Shown here in pieces: positions 5,204 through 61,340 of a stretch of 64,000 nt of DNA; the stretch's first letter is position 1; each line of letters opens with the position of its first letter. Both the position numbers and the translations under genes were made by a program. The notes beneath the pieces were generated by a model. The model saw only the letters and a program-made list of their open reading frames with translations. It searched no databases and was not told the origin of the DNA. The stretch lies in assembly GCA_031417195.1 (NCBI GenBank), contig JANOVC010000026.1:23100-87099 (forward strand), given 5' to 3'. This DNA is from Rhodobiaceae bacterium. Its GTDB lineage: Bacteria; Pseudomonadota; Alphaproteobacteria; Rhizobiales; Aestuariivirgaceae.

Positions 5204-6856
5204 ATGTCGATTCGCTTTGCTATACTGGCCGCTTTCCTGTTTTTATTCACACCTGCTCCCCTGCATGCCGAAGACGGCAGTCGTGTCATTTTGGTGCTGG
5301 ATGCCTCGGGTTCCATGCGCGGCAAGATCGATGGCACATCAAAAATGGATATTGCCAAGGAGGTTGTGGCCAAGCTGGTGAGTGAGTGGAAACCCGCCGA
5401 CGAGTTGGGGTTGGTGTCTTACGGCCACCGTGAAAAGGGGTCTTGCACGGATATTGAAGTGTTGCGTGAACCCGGCAAGCTCGATACCGGTGATTACATG
5501 AAGGCGGTGAATGCGCTGAACCCCAAGGGCAAAACACCGATGACAGCTGCGGTGCGCATGGCTGCGGAAGCTCTTCAGTACACGGAGAAAAAAGCCACTG
5601 TCATTCTGGTGTCAGATGGCATTGAAACCTGCGATCCCAACCCTTGTGCCGTGGCCGGGGAATTGGAAAAGCTGGGTGTTGGCCTCACGGTTCACACAGT
5701 GGGATTTGGTTTGGATGACAAGGGTGCCGTGGCCCAGCTCAAATGCCTCGCTGAAAAGACCGGCGGCACGTTTTCCACCGCCAACAATGCCCAGGAATTG
5801 CAGAAGGCTTTGACCAAAACCGTGGCTGCCGCACCGCCGCCGAAACCTGAACCTGCCGTGGACGAAAACAACTTCATCGGCCACGTGACAATGGCCAAGG
5901 GTGTCGAGCTTCCGGAAAAATTCAACCAACCAACTTGGGTGTTTTTTGGCTCCTTGGATGGCGAAGATGGCAAAATCATCAATACGGAGTATGGCCCGGA
6001 CGTGAAATACAACTTTCCAAGGGACGGTGATTTCATGGTGCGCATTGCCGAAGGCGTTGCCCGTTTGAAGTTTCCGATAAAAATTGAAAAGGGCAAGGTG
6101 ACGAAGAGTGATGTGAGCCTTGAGGCGGGTATTATTGAGTTTTCTGGTTTTCTGGATGACGACACACCGCTTCCCGAAGGCAGTGGCACGTGGGAGATTT
6201 TTGACGCTGAAGGAAAGCGGCTTGATACGAAATATGGACCCACCGTTGTGGTCATGGCCAATGCCGGAGTGCACAAGATTGAACTCACATTGGGAACAGC
6301 CCATGTGGAGCAGAACGTTGAGTTCATTGCTGGCAAGATCACGCAACAGAAGATGTCGCTGGGCGCTGGTGTGATTGAGGTGACGGCGGTGTTCTCGGAA
6401 GGCGGAAAGGCCGTTTCTGAGGGAGCACCTATGGAACTGCGCAAGGGTGAGGCCGATCTTGATGGCAAACACGAATTAATACAGACAGATTACGGCGCGC
6501 CGACGCGTTTCAAGGCGCCAGCGGGCACGTATCAAGTCGTGGTTTTCAAGGATTATGCCACGGCGACCATGCCTGTCACATTGGGGGCAGGTGCGGTTGC
6601 GAAAGTGCAAGTAAACATGAATGCGGGTTACATGGCGATCAAGGCTCTCGGTGCCACGTCCATGGTGATTTTCAGTGGTGAAAAGGATCTGGCTGGTGAA
6701 CGGCAGAACCTTGGTACGGAATATACTGAGGATTTGAACAAGGCGTTTACCGCAGGAACCTATCATGTGGTCATTCATGGGGCGGATGATGTTGTGATGG
6801 CTGAGAAGGATATCGAGATCAAGGCGGGCGAGCGCAATGAAAGCTCCGTTCCTTGA
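5204..6856 (+). CDS. Secreted von Willebrand factor A domain protein with C-terminal beta-rich repeats
   Basis: Signal peptide, MIDAS motif LVLDASGSM, ILVSDGIETC, Pro-rich linker AAPPPKPEP; RBS GGAG before ATG 5204. Confidence 0.9.
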   Translation: MSIRFAILAAFLFLFTPAPLHAEDGSRVILVLDASGSMRGKIDGTSKMDIAKEVVAKLVSEWKPADELGLVSYGHREKGSCTDIEVLREPGKLDTGDYMKAVNALNPKGKTPMTAAVRMAAEALQYTEKKATVILVSDGIETCDPNPCAVAGELEKLGVGLTVHTVGFGLDDKGAVAQLKCLAEKTGGTFSTANNAQELQKALTKTVAAAPPPKPEPAVDENNFIGHVTMAKGVELPEKFNQPTWVFFGSLDGEDGKIINTEYGPDVKYNFPRDGDFMVRIAEGVARLKFPIKIEKGKVTKSDVSLEAGIIEFSGFLDDDTPLPEGSGTWEIFDAEGKRLDTKYGPTVVVMANAGVHKIELTLGTAHVEQNVEFIAGKITQQKMSLGAGVIEVTAVFSEGGKAVSEGAPMELRKGEADLDGKHELIQTDYGAPTRFKAPAGTYQVVVFKDYATATMPVTLGAGAVAKVQVNMNAGYMAIKALGATSMVIFSGEKDLAGERQNLGTEYTEDLNKAFTAGTYHVVIHGADDVVMAEKDIEIKAGERNESSVP

Positions 6857-13214: not shown

Positions 13215-14897
<1,683 letters not shown>

Positions 14898-24306: not shown

Positions 24307-24378
24307 GCCATCCCGTTCTTGACCTTCACGATTTCGTCATATGTGCTTATTATCGCTTGTAGTCCAAAGGAATGCCAT

Positions 24379-26547
24379 ATGAACGACATGCCGACAGCAG
24401 GTTCCATAGCAGCAATTGCCAACGATGATCCACAGCGGTTTTTTAACCGTGAGCTCTCTTGGCTGGGCTTCAACATGAGGGTGCTTGAAGAAGCGCGAAA
24501 CCAGAGCCATCCTTTGTTGGAGCGTCTTCGGTTTCTTTCGATTTCCGGGAACAATCTGGATGAATTCTTCATGGTTCGGGTTGCAGGACTGGTTGGCCAG
24601 GTGCGCGAGCACGTTGTTGAGATCAGTGATGATGGATTGACACCTTCGGAGCAGCTCGAAAAAATCCGAAAAATGGCGCAGGAGTTGATGGCGGAGCAAG
24701 ACAGGCGCTGGCTTCAGCTTAAAATTGAATTGGCCCAAAACGGTATCGACATGGTGGAAGAGGGCCAACTCACCAAAGATGACCATAAATGGCTGGATAA
24801 CCGTTTTCTTGAATACATTCTTCCTATCGTCACGCCCATTGCGATTGATCCCGCCCATCCTTTTCCATTCATTTTGAACCGTGGGTTCATTATAGCGCTG
24901 GAACTGAAACGCCGCACGGATGGTGGTATCATGAACGCCATTCTTCCCATTCCTCCCCAACTCGAACGGTTTATCCGTTTGCCTGGCATCAATGCGCGTT
25001 TCATCTCATTTGAAAACATGCTGGGTGTTTTTCTGCCAAAGCTGTTTCCTGGCTATGATGTTCTTGGACAAGGGTTGTTTCGCATTATTCGTGACAGCGA
25101 TCTTGAAATTGAAGAAGAGGCTGAAGACCTTGTGCGCGTATTCGAAAGTGCACTTAAACGACGCCGCCGGGGAACGGTTATCCGCATGGAGGTGGATGCT
25201 GACTGCCCCTCCGGCATTCGCAATTTCATTGCCGACCAGTTGGACTTCAGCGATGACGTCACGGTGACATGTGAAGGTCTTGTTGGCTATGCCGATACCA
25301 AGCAGCTTATTCTAGATGAGCGACCCGACTTGAAGTTTACGCCCTACGTGGCACGGTTTCCCGAACGGGTGCGCGATCATGGTGGTGATTGCTTTGCTGC
25401 CATCCGGCAAAAGGATTTTGTTGTCCATCACCCCTATGAGTCATTTGACGTTGTCGTGCAGTTTGTTTTGCAGGCAGCAAGTGATCCGAATGTCGTTGCG
25501 ATAAAACAAACCCTATATCGCACTTCGAGCAACTCGCCGATTGTCGCAGCGCTTGCAAAAGCCGCAGAAGCCGGCAAATCCGTGATGGCACTGATCGAGC
25601 TGAAGGCGCGTTTTGACGAAGAGGCCAATATCCAGTGGGCACGTGATTTGGAGCGGGCCGGTGTGCAGGTGGTTTTTGGGTTCATCGAACTTAAAACCCA
25701 TGCGAAAGTTTCCATGGTGGTGCGCCGCGAAGCTGGCGGCATGCGCAGCTATGTGCATTATGGCACTGGAAATTATCATCCGATTACCGCCAAGATCTAC
25801 ACGGACCTCTCCTTTTTCACCAGTGATCCTGCGTTGTGCAGGGATGCAGCCCGGCTTTTCAATTTCATTTCAGGCTATGCCCAGCCGGAAGACTTGGAAA
25901 AACTTTCGCTGTCTCCCATCAATCTAAAGCCACGTCTGCTGAAGCATATTGACGATGAAATTGCCCATGCAAAAGCGGGCAGACCTGCTCAGATTTGGGG
26001 CAAGTTCAACTCGCTGGTTGATCCCGGCATTATTGATGCGCTCTACAAGGCAAGCCAAGCGGGCGTGCAGATCGATTTTGTAGTGCGTGGCATTTGCTGC
26101 CTGCGTCCTGGCGTTCCCGGCCTTTCTGACAATATTCGTGTAAAAAGCATTGTCGGGCGCTTCCTTGAGCACTCGCGCATCATCTGTTTTGGTGCGGGCC
26201 ATGGTTTGCCACATGCGAAGGCTTTGGTTTACATTGGCTCAGCTGACCTCATGCAGCGTAACCTGCATCGCCGCGTGGAAACACTGATTCCAATCGAAAA
26301 CCCGACGGTGCATGAGCAAATCCAGGACCAGATCATGGTTGTAAACTTCAAGGACAATCAACAAAGCTGGAATATTTTGCCTGATGGGTCTGCTATCCGC
26401 GTGGTGCCACCTGCAAATGAGGCCCCTTTCAATGCCCACGATTATTTCATGAATAACCCGTCGCTGTCTGGACGTGGACGCTCACTCAAAGCTAGTGTAT
26501 CTGGCGGTGTCAGTGTGTTGAAAAGAAAGTCCAAGGTTCGCAAGTGA
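24379..26547 (+). CDS. ppk1: Polyphosphate kinase 1
   Basis: [68 protein letters not shown]. Confidence 0.98.
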
Positions 26548-28052
26548 GTTGGCATAAAGGCTTTAGAACAGAACCACCGACGTACCGTCCAGTGGCGGTT
26601 GTTGACATCGGTTCAAACTCGGTGCGGCTTGTGGTTTATGATGGCTTGCGCCGGTCACCTTCGCCAGTGTTCAATGAAAAAATTCTATGCGGTCTTGGCA
26701 AGGGGGTTGCCATCACTGGCAGATTGGCTGATGGCGGCATTGCCAGAGCACTCTCTGCACTGCGAAGATTTCGGGCATTGGCAAAACAAATCGGCGTTAA
26801 GCAGGTTTTTGCAGTGGCCACTGCCGCAGCGCGTGAAGCCTCCAATGGCCCTGATTTTATCGAAAAGGCTGAAGAAGCAGTGGGTGTTGGAATTAATATC
26901 CTCACTGGCAAAGAGGAAGCGCGCTTTGCCGCTCTCGGTGTTATCGCCGGCATTCCTGAAGCGGATGGAATTGTCGGTGATCTTGGCGGCGGCTCATTGG
27001 AACTTATCGATGTTCTTGACGGCAAGTTGCGTGATGGCATTACACTGCCAATCGGACCTTTGCGTCTGATCGACATGTCCGGCGGTTCCATTGCGCGGGC
27101 GAAGGAAATTGTTGATGAGTATCTCGATAAAACCCATATTCTGGAAAACCTGACTGACCGTACGTTTTATGCGGTGGGTGGCACGTGGCGAAATCTCGCT
27201 CGGCTTCATATGGCGCAAAACAAATATCCACTCCATGTCCTGCATCATTACGCAATGACGCGGGTGCAAGCTGCGGGTGTAGCTGACCTCGTGTCCGGAC
27301 TTTCATCATCATCGCTGAAGGATGTACGCGAAGTATCACGCAGCCGTTCTGATACCTTGCCCTATGGTGCGCTCGTTCTTGAACGCCTGTTGGCCAAGAG
27401 CAAAGCGACAAATGTTGTGGCATCTGTTTATGGCGTGCGTGAAGGGCTGCTGTATTCAAAGCTGCCGCGCAAGAAGATGGAATCAGATGCGCTACTTGCC
27501 TCCTGTTGGGATTTCGCGCGGCGCTACGCACGTTCACCACAGCATGAGTTGGAGCTGTGTGACTGGACTGACCAGCTGTTTGGTGAAGCTGGCATTCAGG
27601 AAACCGAAGTTGAAAGGCGACTGCGGTATGCGGCTTGCCTGCTTGCTGACATCGGCTGGCGTGCTCACCCGGATTACCGCGCTGAACGGTCACTTGGCAT
27701 GATTTCACAGGCGGCATTCGTGGGTATCGATCATCCAGGACGCGTGTTTTTAGCACTCACCATTTTTTACCGCTACGAAGGTGAGGATATGGGAGACGGA
27801 CTTGTGCATTTACTTGATGATGACCAGACATCCCGCGCCCATCTTCTGAGTTCGATTTTCCGGTTGGCCTATATCCTGTCTGCTGCAATGCCCGGCATGT
27901 TGCCGCGTATTGGCCTCAAATTGGCGGAAGGAAAGGTTCTTCAGCTTGTCATGCCCAAAAAGCTAAAGGATTTGATGGGAGAGCGGGTTGAAAAGCGCCT
28001 GGCAGGTCTTGCTGCTGAAATGGGCCGGGTTGCTAAGGTTGTGATTGCGTAA
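26544..28052 (+). CDS. ppx: Exopolyphosphatase (Ppx/GppA family)
   Basis: [36 protein letters not shown]. Confidence 0.96.
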
Positions 28053-50997: not shown

Positions 50998-52779
50998 ATG
51001 ATGCACGCCTATCGCAGTCATAAATGCGGTGACCTCAGAATTGACCACGCAGGCCAGGATGTTCGGCTTTCCGGCTGGGTGCACCGGGTGCGGGACCATG
51101 GCGGACTGTTGTTCATCGACCTGCGTGATCACTATGGCCTGACACAAATTGTCATCAATCCTGCATCACCGGCTTTCAAGGTCGCAGAAAAATTGCGTTC
51201 TGAATGGGTGGTTCGGGTTGACGGCAAAGTACAGCCGCGACTGGCCGGAACAGAGAACAAAAACCTTCCAACAGGGCTCATTGAAATCGCAGCGAGTGAA
51301 ATCATGGTTCACTCGGAAGCCAAGGAACTTCCGTTGCCGGTATTTGGCGACACGGAGTATCCTGAAGACATTCGCCTGAAGTACCGCTTCCTTGATCTTC
51401 GCCGTGACCGCATTCATGGCAACATGATGAAGCGTGGTGCGATTATTGATTCACTGCGCAGCCGCATGAAGGGGCAGGGGTTCTTTGAATTCCAGACGCC
51501 TATCCTGACGGCGTCGTCTCCGGAAGGTGCGCGGGATTATCTGGTGCCGAGCCGTGTGCATCCCGGCAAGTTCTATGCTTTGCCGCAGGCACCGCAGCAG
51601 TTCAAGCAATTGCTGATGATGTCTGGCTTTGATCGTTATTTCCAGATTGCGCCATGCTTCAGGGATGAAGATGCGCGGGCTGATCGTTCGCCCGGTGAAT
51701 TCTACCAACTCGATATCGAAATGAGTTTCGTGACGCAGGAAGACGTGTTTGATGCGGTGGAGCCGGTGCTACGCGGGGTGTTTGAGGAGTTTGGCAGCGG
51801 GTTGCCTGTCACGCAAAAATTCCCCCATATCGCCTATAAGGATTCCGTGCGCTGGTATGGCACCGACAAGCCCGACTTGCGTAACCCCATCAAGATGCAA
51901 TCGGTGACCGAACACTTCGCAGGCTCCGGCTTCAAGGTGTTTGCGGGCATGATTGCCAATGACCCGAAGGTTGAAGTGTGGGCGATACCCGCACCCAAGG
52001 GCGGATCGCGTGCGTTTTGCGACCGCATGAATTCGTGGGCGCAGTCCCAGGGTCAACCCGGCTTGGGCTATGTGTTCTGGCGCGATGGTGAAGAGGGTGC
52101 TGCTGGCCCGATTGCAAAGAATATTGGCCCCGAAAGAACCGAGGTCATCAAGACGCAGTTGGGACTTGATGTTGGTGATGCTGCCTTTTTCGTGGCTGGC
52201 GTACCATCCAAGTTCTACAAGTTTGCAGGTGAAGCCCGTACCAAGGCGGGAACCGAACTTGGTATTGTGGCCAATGACCGTTTTGACTTCTGCTGGATTG
52301 TCGATTTCCCGATGTATGAGTGGAACGAGGACGACAAGAAGATCGACTTCTCGCACAACCCCTTCTCCATGCCGCAAGGTGGATTGGAGGCGCTCAATAC
52401 GCAAGACCCGCTGACGATCAATGCCTACCAGTATGACATCGTGTGCAACGGCGTGGAGCTTTCGTCAGGCGCTATCCGTAACCACAAGCCGGACGTCATG
52501 AAAAAGGCGTTTGAGATTGCGGGCTATCCGGAAGATGTGATCATCGAGAAGTTCGGTGGCATGTACCGGGCCTTCCAATACGGCGCACCTCCCCATGGTG
52601 GCATTGCACCGGGTGTGGACCGTATTGTCATGCTCTTGTGCAACGAGCCGAATATCCGCGAAGTGGTGCTGTTCCCGATGAACCAGCAGGCGGAAGATTT
52701 GTTGATGGGGGCGCCTTCCGAGGCCACCCCCAAGCAACTGCGTGAGCTTCACATCCGGCTTAACCTGCCGGATGCGTGA
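50998..52779 (+). CDS. aspS: Aspartyl-tRNA synthetase (probably non-discriminating Asp/Asn)
   Basis: [27 protein letters not shown]-like motif, [22 protein letters not shown]. Confidence 0.98.
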
Positions 52780-53988
52780 TCAATCGTTTGCGGTTACGGA
52801 AACGCCCAGCATGGTGATGGCGGCGGCCGGGTCGGCTGGATTGAGTGTCATCAATGACTGAACGGGAACCGGCTGTGCAGGTTTCATGGAGATGGTGATC
52901 GACTTCGGGTCCTTGAGATAAGCGTTCACCGCTCCTACGACCTGATCAGTGAAGGCCTGGCTTTTCAGCTGCATCAAGCCCAATTGCATAATGGCACCGG
53001 CATTGGAAACCAAGGTTGCTTCATCCATGCCTTGCATCTTTGCAATGAGGGGAAGCACTTTCTTGGTAATCGATGCGTCTTCAAAGCGAATGACGAAGTT
53101 GCTGAGGGAAACATTCATCAACTGTGGCATGAGTGCCGCAAATTCGGGTGGCCGTCCGGCCTTTTGGGCCGCCTGCATTTCGGCCATGACTGTCATTGGA
53201 ATACCGTCTGCTGCATAGGACACCTTGAGCCCCGCCACGTCCTTGCCAACAAATCCGATGTTCGCACTCATGCCGAACTTGTCGCCTGTGACCGTCATCT
53301 CGCCATCGCCTGACGCAGAAAACGCAAGCTCGTTATAGCCCAGTGCTTTCATTTGACCTGATGGATCAATTGTCGAAAGAACCGCTTCGGGAATAACCAC
53401 ATCAGCGAGGCTCATGGTAATCTTTCCGGCACCCGTGGCAGGGTCACCGTCCCAGCTTGATTGATATCCATCGGTGGAAATTGTTTGGCCATTGCCTGTG
53501 AAGGTGATTTTGCCTGACGTTATTTTCTTGGCAATGCCCATGCCGGAGCGGAATGCCTGTGCCGGCGTTGGGTTGTCACCTGCAACTCCGATATACCAGT
53601 CTTCCGCCTTGGCTTCTGGCAAGGCAATCAATGCCACTTTTCCATCTGTGCCGGTGAACTCGATTTTTGTGTCTTTGAAGGTTGCGGCACCAACATTTAT
53701 GAGGCCATCCTTTTCAACAGCAACGGTTTTGAGCGAAACCTCACCTATCGTAACTTTTGCGCCATCCACCGCACCCTGCGTTACGGCATTGGCAACAAGA
53801 TTGGTAATTGTGACACTGCCATCCGCGCCCGTTTCAATCTTGTCATATGTGGGGGTTACCTTGAGCTGGGTTTCCCAGTTCTTGAAAATTGCGGTCACGA
53901 CAGGCGGAACGTCTTCCGCACGGGTTGGCAACGTCAATGCAGATGTGGCCAAGAGAAGAAAAAGGGCGGAGCGTAGGGTGGTTTTCAT
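52780..53988 (-). CDS. Secreted hypothetical protein
   Basis: Signal peptide MKTTLRSALFLLLATSALTLPTRA; 402-aa beta-rich ORF with host-like codon usage. Confidence 0.8.
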   Translation of the reverse strand: MKTTLRSALFLLLATSALTLPTRAEDVPPVVTAIFKNWETQLKVTPTYDKIETGADGSVTITNLVANAVTQGAVDGAKVTIGEVSLKTVAVEKDGLINVGAATFKDTKIEFTGTDGKVALIALPEAKAEDWYIGVAGDNPTPAQAFRSGMGIAKKITSGKITFTGNGQTISTDGYQSSWDGDPATGAGKITMSLADVVIPEAVLSTIDPSGQMKALGYNELAFSASGDGEMTVTGDKFGMSANIGFVGKDVAGLKVSYAADGIPMTVMAEMQAAQKAGRPPEFAALMPQLMNVSLSNFVIRFEDASITKKVLPLIAKMQGMDEATLVSNAGAIMQLGLMQLKSQAFTDQVVGAVNAYLKDPKSITISMKPAQPVPVQSLMTLNPADPAAAITMLGVSVTAND

Positions 53989-54124: not shown

Positions 54125-54907
54125 ATGATGCGCAAATTTTTTATGGCAGTGCTGTTCGTAGTGCTGACAGCAGGCTTTGTTCCGGCTGAGGCCCTTGCCG
54201 CTGTGAAGCAAGGCAAGGAAGATGTCCTGCTTCTTAAAAAGAAGAAGCAGCTGGCCGAACTGCAGGCGGGTATCAAAAGGAAAAAAATCGAACTTGCCGT
54301 TGCGGCAGCCAAGGCAAGAGCCGCACGGCAGAGGGTGACGCGACTTTCCACACGCCGCACCTGCGGCTCTTTCATGCAGTGTCTGTTTGGCTCATCGCGT
54401 CGTCGCCCTGCCGCGGTCAATGCATCATTGGCAAGCTCTGGCCTCAGCGGAAATTCATTGCGCGAAACGGTTGAATGGAATGAAACCAGATACAAGCCCG
54501 GTTCACTGATTGTGAAAACACCGGAACGTGCGCTGTATTATGTTTTGGCTAACGGAGAAGCTGTACGATATTCGATCGGTGTGGGCCGCGAAGGTTTTCA
54601 GTGGAGCGGGAAGTCCAAGATTGTTGCCAAGTCAGAGTGGCCAACGTGGCGCCCGCCCGCAGAAATGATCAGGCGCGAAGCGGCCAAGGGACATATCCTG
54701 CCGGACATGATGGAAGGCGGGCCGGGAAATCCGCTTGGGGCACGCGCGATGTATATCGGCGGTACCATCTACCGCGTGCACGGCACCAACAATGAAGACT
54801 CCATCGGCGGTGCTGTTTCATCGGGCTGCATCCGCATGATGAATGCCGACGTCATTGACCTCTATGCCCGCGTGAAAGTCGGCTCGCCGATATTCGTTTA
54901 CCAATAA
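54125..54907 (+). CDS. L,D-transpeptidase (ErfK/YbiS type) with basic coiled-coil N-terminus
   Basis: YSIGVGREG, EWPTWRPP, NPLGARA, YRVHGTN, VSSGCIRM. Confidence 0.95.
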   Translation: MMRKFFMAVLFVVLTAGFVPAEALAAVKQGKEDVLLLKKKKQLAELQAGIKRKKIELAVAAAKARAARQRVTRLSTRRTCGSFMQCLFGSSRRRPAAVNASLASSGLSGNSLRETVEWNETRYKPGSLIVKTPERALYYVLANGEAVRYSIGVGREGFQWSGKSKIVAKSEWPTWRPPAEMIRREAAKGHILPDMMEGGPGNPLGARAMYIGGTIYRVHGTNNEDSIGGAVSSGCIRMMNADVIDLYARVKVGSPIFVYQ

Positions 54908-54926
54908 GCGCAATTGCAGAATCCAG

Positions 54927-54954
54927 AAAGGCCGCAGTGTTTTGCGGCCTTTTC
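54927..54954 (+). terminator. Rho-independent terminator after the L,D-transpeptidase gene
   Basis: AAGGCCGCA-N6-TGCGGCCTT followed by TT. Confidence 0.8.
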
Positions 54955-54974
54955 ACTTGAAGATGGTGGTTCAC

Positions 54975-55014
54975 AAAAGAATTGACCCCGAAGGCGATGC
55001 CGTCCGGGGTCCAA
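54975..55014 (-). terminator. Rho-independent terminator after the 30-aa basic microprotein
   Basis: Stem GACCCCG/CGGGGTC followed on the minus strand by TTCTTTT. Confidence 0.7.
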
Positions 55015-55041
55015 TCCTAAAAGTTTATGCTCGAAAAAGAA

Positions 55042-55134
55042 TTAGATCTTCTTCTTTGCAGCAGCCTTCTTCGCTGGTTTCTTTGCAGCAGCCTTTTTAG
55101 CGGGCTTCTTTGCAGCTTTTTTCGCAGCAGCCAT
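55042..55134 (-). CDS. 30-aa Lys/Ala/Pro histone-H1-like microprotein MAAAKKAAKKPAKKAAAKKPAKKAAAKKKI
   Basis: Not in the ORF track. RBS AGGAGAG before ATG 55134, TAA at 55042-55044, own terminator; wobble positions vary among the Ala/Lys codons, as expected for coding DNA. Confidence 0.85.
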   Translation of the reverse strand: MAAAKKAAKKPAKKAAAKKPAKKAAAKKKI

Positions 55135-55669
55135 TTTGTTCTCTCCTAGAGATTAGTTGTTAGTGCCCCACAACGCAGGCTAGTCCATTACACTAACGAT
55201 TCTTCCTACATGTATTCCGTATTCGTAATCGTCATTGGTTGCTTTTCTACCCGTTTGTGTGATTCGGCAATATGCCGTCAACATGTTGTGTATCAACCCA
55301 ACATCCCTAACAATTGGTAAACGATACGGGTGGTTGGTGTATCGTCCGTATACTGAGGGATTTTTTAAAACAGCGATTTACACCATAAAAAGTAGTATTT
55401 TTAAGGCTCCTCCGTGTACAGATGGATTATAGATTTTGAATGTTTTTAGTTGAAAAAGCGGAGTTGAATTTTTTGCCGCCTGGCACCCTGTGGAAAAATA
55501 TTTGAAAATAATTTGCGCTTTGTGCTGATTCAACACAGCTATCAATGCGGTCATCGCGCCTATTGGCACTCTTTCGATCATGGACATAGGGCAAGGCGGA
55601 TAGTGTCATGAGGGGCTGGCCTCGCAGTTCACCATGGCGGAAAAACCAAAGCCGACGTTCGATGCATGG

Positions 55670-56134
55670 TCAGGTGAAAAAAACATCCTTCAATTCGGCT
55701 GGAAAACTTGGTTCCTTGAATATTGCTGCATGGCGGTCTGGTCCATAATAAAAACCAAAATTTACGTTCAGCAAAACGATTGTGTAGGCCTTGTTCGTTT
55801 TGCCGATCAGGTTTTTGCCAAATGGCGCAACATCAACCCGTCCATCCGTTTGCGGAGGCCGCACATCGCTCATCAAGGCCTGAAACCTTTCTATGGACCC
55901 GATTGTTTCCGGTCCACAAACGCCATCGATTGAAATTTCAGGTTCACCAGCTCGGGCACTGCTGAATGTTTCCTTCCAAACCGAATCAACCTTATCTGCA
56001 AGCGACCGCAACAGAAACTGGACCAGCAAAACATCTTTCCTGTGATTCACACATCCCCGCCCAACTGTTGCATCATTGAAATATGCAACGCGGACATACT
56101 GGCTGGGAGTTGACAGAAGTCTTACATGTGGCAT
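55670..56134 (-). CDS. Hypothetical protein with a peptidoglycan-binding-like domain
   Basis: VG.G..N...DV.LVQ.LL...IDG.CG.ETI..I..FQ...DGRVD pattern; AT-richer DNA; start uncertain (56134 or 56155). Confidence 0.6.
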   Translation of the reverse strand: MPHVRLLSTPSQYVRVAYFNDATVGRGCVNHRKDVLLVQFLLRSLADKVDSVWKETFSSARAGEPEISIDGVCGPETIGSIERFQALMSDVRPPQTDGRVDVAPFGKNLIGKTNKAYTIVLLNVNFGFYYGPDRHAAIFKEPSFPAELKDVFFT

Positions 56135-56249
56135 TTTACTACCTGATCGAGACAACTATGCTTTACATTAGCACTGCGGCTCAAATGCCACAAGACAGTG
56201 CGCCCCGCTGGTTGACTATCCGGCTAGGAAAATTGATCTTACCTAACCA

Positions 56250-56284
56250 CTCTCCATGGTCGGGCTTGACCCTGCCACCCAGAC
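56250..56284 (-). repeat. REP-like palindromic repeat, copy 2
   Basis: CTCTCCATGGTCGGGCTTGACCCTGCCACCCAGAC, the reverse complement of the family consensus. Confidence 0.9.
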
Positions 56285-56350
56285 TTAACAGCAAGATTTG
56301 CGCTTGGGTATTGCGAGGAAATTTACCAAACTGACTTTTGTTTCAAAAGA

Positions 56351-56388
56351 GTCTGGGTGGTCGGGTCAAGCCCGACCATGGAGAGAAT
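56351..56388 (+). repeat. REP-like palindromic repeat, copy 3 (inverted pair with copy 2, 66-nt spacer)
   Basis: GTCTGGGTGGTCGGGTCAAGCCCGACCATGGAGAGAAT. Confidence 0.92.
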
Positions 56389-56417
56389 AATGGTTTGATT
56401 TAGTTTGAAATCATAAA

Positions 56418-56439
56418 TGGCCGGAGTTACCTCCGGCCA
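56418..56439. repeat. Perfect hairpin TGGCCGGAG-TTAC-CTCCGGCCA (terminator or related REP variant)
   Basis: 9-4-9 inverted repeat followed by an AT-rich tract. Confidence 0.55.
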
Positions 56440-56494
56440 AATTCTATTTTGGTTTTCCTGACGACTTTCGATTAGGTTTTTGTGTGAGTGCTGA

Positions 56495-56731
56495 TGCCGT
56501 CACCCTGAACTCGCGCAGCAGGAGCGCGAGGAGATCGACGTAATCCAGAGCTATATGCCGAAGCAGTTGTCCGACGATGAGGCGAAGGCGGCAGTTGCTG
56601 CAATCATCGCGGGCTTGGGCGCAACATCAGTCAAAGACATGGGCAAGGTGATGGCCGAGTTGAAAACGAAATATGCGGGTCAGATGGACATGGCCAAGGC
56701 GGGCGGGATTGTGAAGGGGGTGTTGGGGTAG
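56495..56731 (+). pseudogene. 5'-truncated GatB/YqeY-domain gene fragment
   Basis: Hand translation RHPELAQQEREEIDVIQSYMPKQLSDDEAKAAVAAII...KDMGKVMAELKTKYAGQMDMAKAGGIVKGVLG* matches the C-terminal half of YqeY proteins; an in-frame TGA lies at 56492-56494 just upstream. Confidence 0.8.
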
Positions 56732-56762
56732 CTCTCAAAACGCGAGAGAGCTTCACCACCAT

Positions 56763-56794
56763 CTCTCCATGGTCGGGCTTGACCCGACCACCCA
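56763..56794 (-). repeat. REP-like palindromic repeat, copy 4
   Basis: CTCTCCATGGTCGGGCTTGACCCGACCACCCA. Confidence 0.92.
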
Positions 56795-56817
56795 AAGTCT
56801 CCAATAAAATGAATTTT

Positions 56818-57537
56818 TTAATGCAGAAAGTTCTGAAGCCAATCATTTCGCGACTGTGAATAATTTTCACGCGCCAATTTCACTTCGTTCCACGTATCAG
56901 GAAAGAATATATCCAAATTTGTTGATGCTTCACAGGCAAGCGAACCCATTTCGGTCAACATGATTTTTAGCATCTTGTGTTCGATAAAAGGACCGATGAA
57001 AGCGTCGCCATCAGGTTCGTGTCGAAGCAAATAATTTGACTTCATGGTCGGATGACTGGCTAGTTCAGAAAACGCTTTGTATCGTTCTGCTCGTCTCTTC
57101 TGTGTGAAGCCGTCCCGTGCATCTAAAATTATACGCACTTTAGGTGGGCCGAATTTTTTATTGCGCTCGCTATCCTCGGTCAATCTCCAAGTCGATATTG
57201 AACTTTTGTCCGTACTAAACATATCCAAAAGAAACACAGTTTCCAAAATGTCTCTCATAATCAGCGCGCTGTTTTGACTGTAACCAACCATTACCAATTT
57301 GATACTGGCGGCGAAGGCATTAAATATTCGCATGCCAAAGATTTGTATAACCTTCAAATCTTCGTCCTCAGTTTTAAACTGCCGCAGCATATTGGCCATA
57401 TCCATCGTTTGTTGGACGATGTTAATATGTAAAACAAGATCAGCGTCGCTTGTAATCAAATTTAAGGCTTTTTGACGCAATAATTCTTCGCCTTTGTGAA
57501 GGCGCAATAAGTTTTCAAGCGTCATAATTGAATTCAC
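56818..57537 (-). CDS. AT-rich helical hypothetical protein (possible HEPN/DUF5677-like), bracketed by REP copies 4 and 5
   Basis: 239-aa ORF on AT-rich DNA; ALIMRDILETVFLL and RYKAFSELASHP motifs; start may be GTG 57537 or ATG 57525. Confidence 0.7.
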   Translation of the reverse strand: MNSIMTLENLLRLHKGEELLRQKALNLITSDADLVLHINIVQQTMDMANMLRQFKTEDEDLKVIQIFGMRIFNAFAASIKLVMVGYSQNSALIMRDILETVFLLDMFSTDKSSISTWRLTEDSERNKKFGPPKVRIILDARDGFTQKRRAERYKAFSELASHPTMKSNYLLRHEPDGDAFIGPFIEHKMLKIMLTEMGSLACEASTNLDIFFPDTWNEVKLARENYSQSRNDWLQNFLH

Positions 57538-57552
57538 CGTTAGGGAAAAGGA

Positions 57553-57587
57553 GTCTGGGTGGTCGGGTCAAGCCCGACCATTGAGAG
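57553..57587 (+). repeat. REP-like palindromic repeat, copy 5 (inverted pair with copy 4)
   Basis: GTCTGGGTGGTCGGGTCAAGCCCGACCATTGAGAG. Confidence 0.92.
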
Positions 57588-57612
57588 TTGGGGTTTGATT
57601 GGGTCTTAAATT

Positions 57613-57648
57613 AAAAAAATGCCCGCGAAATTTTCACGGGCATTTTTT
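57613..57648 (-). terminator. Rho-independent (potentially bidirectional) terminator after nrdJ
   Basis: AAAAAATGCCCG-N11-CGGGCATTTTTT. Confidence 0.85.
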
Positions 57649-57668
57649 GTTTTATGTTTTAGACGCTA

Positions 57669-60600
57669 TCAAGAACATCCACTCGTTGACCCACACGAGT
57701 TACACTTCAAACATGTGCCGTTGCGCACGAGCGTGTAGTTTCCGCATTCGCCGCAGCTGTCGCCTTCGTAGCCTTGGAGCTTGGCTTTGGCGCGTTGGTC
57801 TTGGGCGTTGAGCGTGGCTGCAGGTGCTGGTTGCTCATAGACGTGTGCGGTTGGGGCTTCGGCAAGCGCGAGGGCACCCACTGACATCGATTCCGCGGCG
57901 CGCATTTGCAGGGCGTGGGCGGGGGATGACGCCGTGGTGGCCGACTGGGGCATGACCACTACGTTCGACAGGTTCTGTTTTCGCACAAAGCCTGACGACA
58001 TGAACTTCTGGGCCGGAACCGATGGCACCTTGGGTTCATCCTCATCAATGCCTTTGCCGAGCGCGTCAAAACCCATTTCGGAGGCTTCAACATGGGCCAG
58101 ATCATTGCGGCCCAGATAGGACACGGCAAGTTCGCGGAACACGTAGTCCAAGATGGACGTGGCATTCTTGATGGACTCGTTGCCCTGCACCATGCCGGCG
58201 GGTTCAAACTTGGTGAAGGTGAAGGCATCGACATATTCTTCCAGCGGCACACCGTATTGCAGGCCCACCGAGATGGAAATGGCGAAGTTGTTCATCATGG
58301 CGCGCAGGGCCGCACCTTCCTTGTGCATGTCGATGAAGATTTCACCGAGCTTGCCGTCGTCATATTCACCAGTGCGGAGATAGACCTTATGGCCACCGAC
58401 CACGGCCTTCTGAGTATAGCCCTTGCGGCGGCCCGGCAGCTTGTCACGGCCACGGGCAATTTCGATCACCTTCTCGACGATGGTTTCGATGCGTTGAACG
58501 ATGGGCTTGGCCATCAGGCCTTCGACCATATCTTCGCCCTCGTCCGCATCATCGGAAATGAGCTGGGTGGAGAGGGGCTGCGAGAGCTTGGAGCCATCGC
58601 GATACAGTGCGTTTGCCTTCACGCCCAACTTCCACGACAGCATGTAGGCTGCGTTACAGTCGGCAACCGTTGCATCATTCGGCATGTTGATGGTTTTGGA
58701 AATGGCACCCGAGATAAAAGGTTGTGATGCCGCCATCATGCGAATGTGGCTGTCCACGCTCAAGTAACGCTTGCCCAGACGACCGCAGGCGTTGGCGCAA
58801 TCGAACACGGGGAGATGCTCGTCCTTCAAGCCGGGAGCGCCTTCCAGCGTCATGGCACCGCAGACATGCAGGTTGGCCTTGTCGATATCGGCCTTAGAGA
58901 AGCCGAGATGGGCCAAGAGATCAAAGCTGTAGTCGCTCAACTGCTCGTCGCTGATTTTCAGCACTGACTTGCAGAAGTCTTCGCCCAGCGTCCACTTGTT
59001 GAACACGAACTTGATATCGAAGGCGGACGCCAGACCGGCTTCAACTTTTTCAATCTGTGTGTCACCCAAGCCCTTGGAGCGGAGCTGGCCATGGTTGAGG
59101 GCAGGGGAATCCTGCAGGGTGCCAAGACCTACCGCGTAGTTGATGATCTTTTCGATCTGGGTTGCATCATAGCGGAGCGTGCGCAGGGCCTCCGGTACGG
59201 CCTGGTTGATGATCTTGAAGTAGCCACCGCCTGCAAGCTTTTTGAACTTCACGAGCGCGAAGTCCGGCTCAATGCCTGTGGTGTCGCAATCCATGACAAG
59301 GCCGATGGTGCCGGTTGGCGCCACAACGGTTGCCTGCGCATTGCGGTAGCCATGGGCCTCACCGAGTTCAACGGCCTTGTCCCAGGCAAGACGTGCATGG
59401 GTAACCAGGTCCTTGTCGAGGCAGGCCGCATCATCCAATGGCACGGGTGCGATGTTCACGCCTTCGTAGCCCACGGCCGCACCATAGGCAGCGCGGCGAT
59501 GGTTGCGCATCACGCGCAGCATGTGGTCGCGGTTCTTGGCAAAGCCAGGGAAGGGGCCAAGCTCCTTGGCCATTTCAGCCGAGGTTGCATAGGATACGCC
59601 GGTCATGATGGCCGACAGTGCACCGCAGATAGCGCGGCCTTCATGGCTGTCATAGGAAATGCCGTTAGTCATCAGAAGCCCACCGATATTGGCAAAGCCC
59701 AAACCGAGGGTGCAATACTCATAGGATTGCTTGGCAATTTCCTTCGATGGGAACTGTGCCATGAGAACGGAGATTTCCAGAACCATGGTCCACAGGCGAA
59801 CGCCGTGCTCGTAAGCGGCCACATCAAACTTTGCGGTGTCCGGATTGCGGAACTGCAACAGGTTCAATGATGCAAGGTTACACGCCGTATCATCGAGGAA
59901 CATATATTCCGAGCAAGGGTTCGATGCGCGGATTTCACCGGATGCGGGGCAGGTGTGCCAGTCATTGATGGTGGTGTGATATTGAATGCCGGGATCGGCT
60001 GACGCCCAAGCGGCTTGGCCAATCTTGTCCCACAGGTCGCGGGCCTGCAACGTCTTGGTGACCTTGTTGGACATGCGGGCATTCAGATTCCATGCGCCAT
60101 CGGTTTCAACGGCGCGCAGGAACTCATCGGTCACACGCACCGAGTTGTTGGAGTTCTGGCCCGACACCGTTCGGTAGGCCTCGCCATCCCAATCGGTGTC
60201 ATAGGCATCAAATTCAAGCTCGGTGTAGCCCTGCTTGGCAAACTGCACCACGCGCTTGATGTAATTGTCCGGCACCATGTTGCGGCGGGCATCTTTCACC
60301 GCGCGCTTGAGGGCAGGATTTTTTTCAATCTCGAAGCAATCATCGCCGGGGCCTTCGCAATTCACGCAGGCCTTCATGATGATGCCGAGATGCTTTTTCA
60401 CAATCTTGGAACCGGTGACGAGAGCTGCAACCTTCTGCTCCTCCTTCACCTTCCAATCGATATATTCCTCGACATCGGGATGATCCACATCAACGACCAC
60501 CATCTTGGCCGCACGTCGCGTGGTGCCGCCGGACTTGATGGCACCCGCTGCACGGTCACCAATTTTCAGGAAGCTCATCAGGCCGGAGGATTTTCCGCCG

Positions 60601-61340
60601 CCGGAGAGTTTTTCGCTTTCGCCGCGCAGGTGCGAAAAGTTTGAACCGGTGCCGGAGCCATATTTGAACAGGCGCGCTTCACGCACCCAGAGATCCATGA
60701 TGCCGCCTTCGTTGACAAGATCGTCAGCCACGCCCTGAATAAAGCAGGCGTGGGGTTGTGGATGCTCATAGGATGACTTGGATTTGGTGAGCTTGCCGGT
60801 TTCAAAATCCACATAGAAGTGACCTTGACCTGGGCCATCAATACCATAAGCCCAGTGCAGGCCGGTGTTGAACCATTGTGGTGAGTTTGGCGCGCACTTT
60901 TGGGTGGCCAGCATGTAGCAGAGTTCATCATAAAAGGCTTGTGCGTCGTCTTCGGTGTTGAAGTAGCCGCCCTTCCAGCCCCAATAGGTCCAGGTGCCGG
61001 CAAGCCGGTTGAACACCTGCTTGGAGCTCATTTCGCCAATGATGCGTTGCTTCTCAGGAATCGCTTCCAACGCGGCGTCATCAGCCACGGAGCGCCACAA
61101 CCATGAGGGAATGCTGTTTTCTTCAATGCGCTTCAACGCAGCGGGAACACCAGCCTTGCGGAAATATTTCTGGGCCAGAATATCAGTCGCAACCTGGCTC
61201 CACGATGCGGGAACCTCGATGTTTTCCAGACGGAAAACAATCGACCCGTCCGGGTTCTTGATTTCGCTGGTCGCCCTGCGGAATTCGATCTCCGCGTAAG
61301 CGTTCTGTCCGGCCTTGGTAAATTTGCGTTCGACTAACAT
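57669..61340 (-). CDS. nrdJ: Class II (vitamin B12-dependent) ribonucleotide reductase
   Basis: [48 protein letters not shown]-terminal CGECG...CNSCG; 1223 aa with no intein-like insert seen. Confidence 0.97.

Follow-up and report, generated by a model that had tools for sequence, protein, structure and literature searches.

Locus organisation

The window, that is, the whole 64,000-nt stretch of DNA analysed here, comes from a genome of 3.54 Mb in 112 contigs, in which it spans C26:23100-87099. On its minus strand lies a very short open reading frame (micro-ORF) that no gene finder has called, and it is placed among the following features:

24319-26547: ppk1, 27 kb from the micro-ORF
26544-28052: ppx, 27 kb from the micro-ORF
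50998-52779, plus strand: aspS
52780-53988, minus strand: an unknown 402-aa protein
54125-54907, plus strand: ykuD, encoding a YkuD L,D-transpeptidase, convergent with the micro-ORF
54975..55018, minus strand: intrinsic terminator (GC-rich hairpin and U-run), found by folding, with pairing kept between species
55042..55134, minus strand: microprotein ORF, 30 codons plus TAA, product MAAAKKAAKKPAKKAAAKKPAKKAAAKKKI
55044-55042, minus strand: stop codon TAA (sequence inspection)
55134-55132, minus strand: start codon ATG (sequence inspection)
55141..55147, minus strand: Shine-Dalgarno (SD) sequence AGGAGAG, followed by a 6-nt spacer, AACAAA, and the ATG
57669-61340, minus strand: nrdJ, encoding a class II ribonucleotide reductase, upstream of the micro-ORF on the same strand

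The 13 Lys, 13 Ala and 2 Pro in 30 aa reported in the initial annotation were counted correctly, the other two residues of MAAAKKAAKKPAKKAAAKKPAKKAAAKKKI being one Met and one Ile. The strong ribosome-binding site AGGAGAG, ATG, reading frame, TAA and dedicated terminator that it described are likewise all present, on the minus strand. An in-frame stop codon lies six codons upstream of the ATG, and the product opens directly with MA(A)(A)KK. The terminator hairpin (55018-54979, then UUUU) begins 23 nt after the TAA and has a folding energy of -27.1 kcal/mol (z = -3.5), a stability reached by 0 of 200 shuffled sequences. Its stem letters differ between species while the pairing is retained. A simple terminator scan missed this hairpin because its stem and loop exceed the limits of the scan. 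A second hairpin, aaaggccgcagtgttttgcggcctttt (window 54925-54958), is found between ykuD and the micro-ORF terminator; it resembles a ykuD terminator and is possibly bidirectional.

The order nrdJ - cassette - ykuD is conserved in relatives. In 87 loci nrdJ precedes the cassette on the same strand, with 442-2672 nt (median 589) between its stop codon and the ATG of the micro-ORF, and it has its own strong terminator 20-35 nt past the stop codon at every locus examined (58 printed), which rules out an operon with nrdJ. Downstream, ykuD is convergent in 95 loci. The micro-ORF unit therefore stands alone, as had been claimed when it was called a complete stand-alone transcription unit. Furthermore, because ykuD is convergent, the micro-ORF has no downstream gene under its control and does not act as an attenuator; an attenuation leader peptide was rejected as it would precede a co-directional gene and control it through alternative hairpins, and what follows here is a terminator and then, in the 95 loci, the convergent ykuD.

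The gap between nrdJ and the cassette is only ~450-600 nt in most relatives. In the window, a 2.5-kb AT-richer insertion (~55460-57660) separates nrdJ from the control region of the micro-ORF and carries, on the same strand, two orphan ORFs (55670-56155 and 56818-57537) and a 3' fragment of yqeY (56555-56731). Despite this insertion, the region from palindrome 1 onward (~290 nt upstream of the ATG; see below) is intact.

Conservation of the micro-ORF

The micro-ORF is the sole free-standing ORF of K/A composition in the 3.54-Mb genome, which also encodes several larger proteins with K/A/P-rich tails. The statement that it is unannotated holds widely, as none of 16 exact family peptides (23-72 aa) occurs among 15 billion predicted proteins. 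Neither Pfam nor NCBIfam profiles placed the peptide in a family, a word-indexed HMMER search with a 43-aa homologue gave no family placement, and a six-frame protein search across the order (301 genomes) failed, missing even known same-genus copies. As low-complexity scoring blinds protein-level tools here, DNA patterns and synteny were used instead.

By DNA search, the cassette was recovered from 24 of 24 same-genus genomes, and later from 36 of 36, with a K/A ORF in the same place and convergent with ykuD at every usable locus. Species genomes were searched with a pattern that joins leader, SD and start (CGTTGTGGGG...CTAGGAGA...ATGGC). It matched 109 of ~185,000 genomes, comprising 105 complete ORFs of 21-72 aa, two ORFs cut by contig ends and two chance matches. 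Since the SD motif is part of this pattern, alignments of the loci that it found are not independent evidence for the SD; in the independent blastn set, the SD core CTAGGAGA is identical in 19 of 19 aligned loci. Similarly, a metagenome search with an independent leader 18-mer matched 111 contigs, 78 of which have a K/A ORF 131-149 nt downstream, the remainder being seven truncated copies, one cassette with an ATT start and about 25 unrelated chance matches. The ATT case (contig Ga0105047_10044612, ~5190) is otherwise intact, and ATT may be a sequencing error or serve as an uncommon start codon. A metagenome scan for expression yielded no transcript-sized contigs.

Homologous ORFs are also present at eight loci of other genera. 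In total, the cassette was found in nine of the 14 Aestuariivirgaceae genera examined and in none of 16 other families sampled. Linkage to nrdJ is confined to Aestuariivirgaceae: a search of the 1.5 kb downstream of nrdJ showed a K/A ORF in two more of its genera but in 0 of 16 other families of Rhizobiales. Outside the family, K/A-like DNA matches proved to be the tails of large proteins and not free-standing genes. Two such matches, L173 (G040:C42) and L174 (G028:C318), from other Rhizobiales families, are K/A/P-rich C-terminal tails of open frames of at least 272 and at least 243 aa, respectively. Within relatives, the SD, ATG, frame and terminator are conserved in the setting nrdJ - cassette - ykuD, as expected of the gene that the initial annotation proposed.

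The homologues are 20-72 aa long, with 81 distinct peptides in 105 species, and length changes by in-frame gain or loss of AKK/PAKK-type units. When the peptides are pooled, K makes up 49% of residues, A 39%, P 6%, M 3% and V 1.3%, and R, E, D, N and Q are wholly absent from ~3,500 pooled codons. The 105 ORFs end in TAA (91), TAG (8) or TGA (6). Over twelve anchored codons, entropy at codon positions 1, 2 and 3 is 0.44, 0.42 and 1.15 bits, and this concentration at third positions is the signature of a translated frame. Moreover, AAG makes up 83% of the Lys codons in the micro-ORFs, compared to 50% genome-wide and 84% in dnaK, rpoB, rpoC and atpD, a bias that would fit high expression and avoidance of slippery A-runs. 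These comparisons show that purifying selection acts on the reading frame, the start codon, the SD and the terminator in more than 100 Aestuariivirgaceae species, and the micro-ORF is very probably a real protein-coding gene.

Leader RNA and candidate promoter

In an alignment of 19 loci, a region of ~290 nt before the ATG is conserved. It contains the following elements:

55162..55284, minus strand: leader element (model R1), from RNAalifold and a covariance model
~55233-55193, minus strand: variable hairpin P3, enclosed by P2
~55262-55249 (5' strand) and ~55180-55166 (3' strand), minus strand: long-range helix P2, UC.CACAA.CGGGU with GCCUG..UUGUG.GG
55277-55265, minus strand: inverted repeat CGGCA-TAT-TGCCG, invariant, inside the nearly invariant stretch ATGTTGACGGCATATTGCCGAATCACACAAACGGGT
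55269..55296, minus strand: candidate sigma-70-type promoter, TTGATA, 16 nt, CATATT (promoter scan, 9/12 matches)
55307..55322, minus strand: box GTTTACC-N3-TTGTTAG, upstream of the candidate promoter (alignment of 19 loci)
55345..55356: palindrome 2, minus-strand sequence TCAGTATACGGA, starting 222 nt before the ATG
55411..55422: palindrome 1, TCTGTACACGGA, 288 nt upstream of the ATG, with one mismatch to TCMGT-NN-ACKGA

Downstream of ATGTTGACGGCATATTGCCGAATCACACAAACGGGT the order is the variable hairpin, the invariant CCTGCGTTGTGGGGC and then the SD. The leader model pairs 94.4% of cells over a set of 98 distinct sequences, against 30-52% when the partners are slid. Compensatory changes occur in all six P3 pairs, and the inner P2 pairs covary, one of them with five pair types. 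No covariation evidence comes from outer P2 or from the inverted repeat, both of which are invariant and never vary on both sides. Covariation thus supports P3 and inner P2 only.

The leader motif is single-copy, with no copies elsewhere in the genome. Rfam 15 has no match for the leader: over the whole window none reached gathering score, and a second Rfam search gave nothing better than E = 0.35, those matches falling on the terminators. An upstream ORF across the inverted repeat was considered and rejected, since ATG-TAG breaks it in many species and conservation there is invariance at the nucleotide level.

The candidate -10 element lies inside the inverted repeat, so transcription would start near 55263, with P2 at the very 5' end of the mRNA and the repeat left outside it as promoter or operator DNA. 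An alternative start near 55283 would instead place the inverted repeat in the RNA as a hairpin, P1. Under either predicted start, P2 and P3 are within a predicted 5' UTR of ~130-150 nt. The box GTTTACC-N3-TTGTTAG occurs once in the genome; it is not a canonical CtrA box, and the genome has genuine TTAA-N7-TTAAC sites at other positions.

The two palindromes mark the upstream end of this region. In most species palindrome 1 lies at ~-289 and palindrome 2 at ~-223 relative to the ATG, with ~-295 and ~-226 in other genera. Both are present, at fixed offsets, in 78 of 105 species, and the position is kept across at least seven genera.

Comparison with known systems

Lys/Ala/Pro tails that bind DNA are known from AlgP and PhaF, and AlgP also binds polyphosphate granules (PMC11894788). 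The peptide shares with Pseudomonas AlgP, the C-terminal domain of PhaF, Bordetella BpH1 and Chlamydia Hc2 their low-complexity repeats of the AKK/PAKK type (PMC11894788). Like them, it is very highly positively charged, is predicted to be disordered and differs in repeat number between close relatives. These proteins are ~100-350 aa long, however, whereas the microprotein has 20-72 aa and consists of the tail alone. The AlgP/PhaF type is defined by a Lys/Ala/Pro tract of variable repeat number, which is present (K 49%, A 39%, P 6%), and by a structured N-terminal domain, folded or coiled-coil in AlgP and PhaF, which is missing, given the direct start of the product and the upstream in-frame stop. 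Unlike AlgP, PhaF, BpH1 and Hc2, the microprotein gene has its own leader RNA and upstream palindromes.

The C-terminal tail of eukaryotic H1 provides a similar comparison. In that tail, too, K is much commoner than R, Ala and Pro are abundant and (S/T/P)AKK-type units recur, and its presumed action, non-specific neutralisation of phosphate charge, would be shared with the peptide. The likeness is compositional only, as the peptide is too short for the winged-helix globular domain of linker histone H1 (PF00538, no match) and there is no evidence of homology. Similarly, the resemblance to Chlamydia Hc2 on which the initial annotation drew does not amount to formal family membership, since Pfam HC2 (PF07382) matches the peptide at E = 0.81 and 10.2 bits against a cut-off of 40, and two homologues that were tried gave no match. 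As the HC2 profile failed and the folded domain of AlgP, PhaF and H1 is missing, the peptide would be a tail-only variant and not a member of these families. No paper describing such stand-alone K/A tail peptides was found in the literature.

What is specific to the present case is the family-wide conservation, the covarying leader and the paired palindromes that belong to an over-represented genomic motif. The new elements are a 5' leader with covariation-supported helices and two 12-bp palindromes at fixed positions.

Proposed function and alternative explanations

With moderate confidence, the micro-ORF can be regarded as an independently transcribed gene whose product, a disordered polycation of 29-30 residues (13 Lys, no acidic residues), coats nucleic acid in the manner of an H1-type tail. 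Judged by its residues, the peptide is in effect a histone-H1-type Lys/Ala/Pro tail without an attached folded domain. A composition of Lys, Ala and Pro only, the lack of a hydrophobic face and a variable length built from repeats match H1-type tails, and non-specific coating of nucleic acid, DNA first, is favoured for this reason. The peptide would bind the phosphate backbone through Lys-phosphate contacts without sequence specificity, chromosomal DNA being the most likely target and RNA the second. Neutralisation of charge could then compact or bridge the polymer, as with the tails of H1, AlgP and PhaF. Synthesis might be controlled at two levels, at transcription by a protein recognising TCMGT-NN-ACKGA and at mRNA stability or translation by the P2/P3 leader, possibly with feedback through the leader when free polycation accumulates. 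The nucleoid-condensing role is inferred from composition and from the likeness to H1-like tails. An antimicrobial peptide or type I toxin was rejected on compositional grounds, as the peptide has neither a hydrophobic face nor a signal peptide and no transporter is encoded close by.

Two observations count against this explanation. Arg is wholly absent although AGG is a single step from AAG, which suggests that more than charge alone is at stake and hints at a Lys-specific need, for example for modification or for weaker, more dynamic binding. Moreover, a separate tail-only product is not obviously needed in a genome that already encodes several larger K/A/P-tailed proteins.

The main partner of the peptide could instead be polyphosphate or another non-nucleic-acid polyanion, with the peptide coating or spacing polyP granules as the AlgP tail does. 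A pure polycation cannot tell polyanions apart, ppk1 and ppx are present in the genome, and AlgP, whose tail is built of KPAA repeats, is found at polyP granules and sets their spacing (PMC11894788). The N-terminal coiled-coil domain of AlgP is missing from the peptide, however, and there is no genomic linkage. The initial annotation had taken its polyphosphate hint from the presence of ppk1 and ppx in the window; this hint is not supported, as both genes are 27 kb away and the neighbours conserved with the cassette are nrdJ and ykuD. We consider this explanation unlikely. Much the same low probability is given to a ribosome- or RNA-associated microprotein comparable to bS22, bL37, Thx or eL41, which are 20-45 aa long, extremely basic and, like the microprotein, often missed by gene callers. 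In such a case, the leader would be an autoregulatory RNA mimic of the binding site. Size and charge are compatible, the AAG bias is like that of highly expressed genes, and a dedicated structured leader is a feature of many ribosomal-protein operons. Ribosomal microproteins, however, have fixed lengths and specific, Arg-rich sequences, whereas the micro-ORF family is built of repeats, ranges over 20-72 aa by their gain and loss, conserves composition alone and has essentially no Arg. The peptide also had no match in NCBIfam, the micro-ORF is not within a ribosomal-protein operon, and the range is narrow (nine of 14 genera of the family and none of the 16 other families sampled).

It is still less probable that the transcript is what matters and the peptide has no job, whether the transcript is a regulatory RNA or the ORF a sensor of, for example, Lys-tRNA supply or ribosome stalling. 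Ribosomes can stall on Lys-rich ORFs, and the leader nucleotides are more conserved than the ORF. Against such a role, there is no co-directional gene to control beyond the strong terminator, only the convergent ykuD; third positions drift across more than 100 species in which composition, charge and frame are preserved; and the apparent upstream ORF across the inverted repeat is broken, as described above. The AAG preference, which avoids slippery A-runs, also argues for a faithful product. Finally, purine-rich repeats can stay open in several frames, and the ORF could in principle be a chance product of low-complexity DNA, or the true gene could be the 40-codon ORF on the opposite strand (55027-55149, plus strand). 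This is barely credible given that the 19 loci recovered through DNA similarity do not differ in SD or ATG, that third-position periodicity tracks the K/A frame, that the terminator is oriented for the minus strand and that conservation extends across more than 100 species; in the window, no SD was seen by eye before the plus-strand ATG.

Genome-wide distribution of the palindrome

The motif of the two upstream palindromes, TCMGT-NN-ACKGA, is present in 79 copies in the genome of the window, compared to ~6 expected from half-site counts, a ~12-fold excess. Enrichment is confined to the 2-nt spacing, all other spacings and orientations being at background, and 71 of the 79 copies lie deep inside ORFs, along which they are evenly spread. 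On a complete Aestuariivirga chromosome there are 77 copies against 13 of a control pattern, at ~17 per Mb throughout. Among 21 further genomes, eight other cassette-bearing genera have 16-122 copies against 2-11 for the control. The enrichment is thus seen in all nine cassette genera, Aestuariivirga included, and is absent from five cassette-less genera of the family and from eight other families. Palindrome DNA with which the binder could be identified is TCCGTATACGGA.

An Rrf2 regulator (C55:50608-51024) has a palindrome upstream and shares the phyletic pattern of the cassette. It is not supported as the palindrome binder, since its orthologues lack an upstream palindrome and have GTAAC-N7-GTTAC instead. 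In five of the nine Rrf2 orthologues examined (L175-L183), this conserved inverted repeat extends across the SD immediately before the start codon. In the NrdJ tree the cassette-less genera cluster together, so the co-occurrence of cassette, palindrome and Rrf2 regulator may reflect only one or two events.

A wider, tentative possibility, to which we assign a low probability, is that microprotein, leader and genome-wide palindrome form one lineage-specific chromatin module, in which a sequence-specific protein on the 16-122 sites per genome, mostly intragenic and including the six near the putative gene-transfer-agent cluster described below, would control or cooperate with the H1-tail-like polycation, whose gene bears a conserved pair of such sites. 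Such a module would join a sequence-specific anchor to a polycationic coat that lacks specificity.

The search for nucleoid proteins in bacteria usually centres on folded proteins of at least 90 aa, and a freshwater and soil family of Rhizobiales appears to keep a domain-less, histone-tail-like polycation with its own promoter region, leader and terminator. Genes of this kind escape the common approaches, because a micro-ORF is too short for gene callers and its low complexity defeats HMM searches, while in tryptic proteomics every second residue of the peptide is a cleavage site. Cultured Aestuariivirga strains exist, which makes this a tractable case for learning what such peptides bind, and the covarying leader RNA and the over-represented 12-bp palindrome are two new elements that make the binding question testable.

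Several individual copies of the palindrome are also of note. The window holds two further copies besides those of the cassette, at 5575-5586 and 14619-14630 (G000 C26:28674 and C26:37718). One copy lies in the spacer between dnaA and rpsT (C90:39172), 318 nt upstream of the dnaA start, rpsT having been read by eye. Against a genome average of about one copy in 45 kb, six copies fall within 14 kb of a putative gene-transfer-agent cluster (contig C22, ~26.5-41 kb), in which portal-like, large host-specificity-like, lysozyme-like and NlpC/P60-like proteins were identified by eye.
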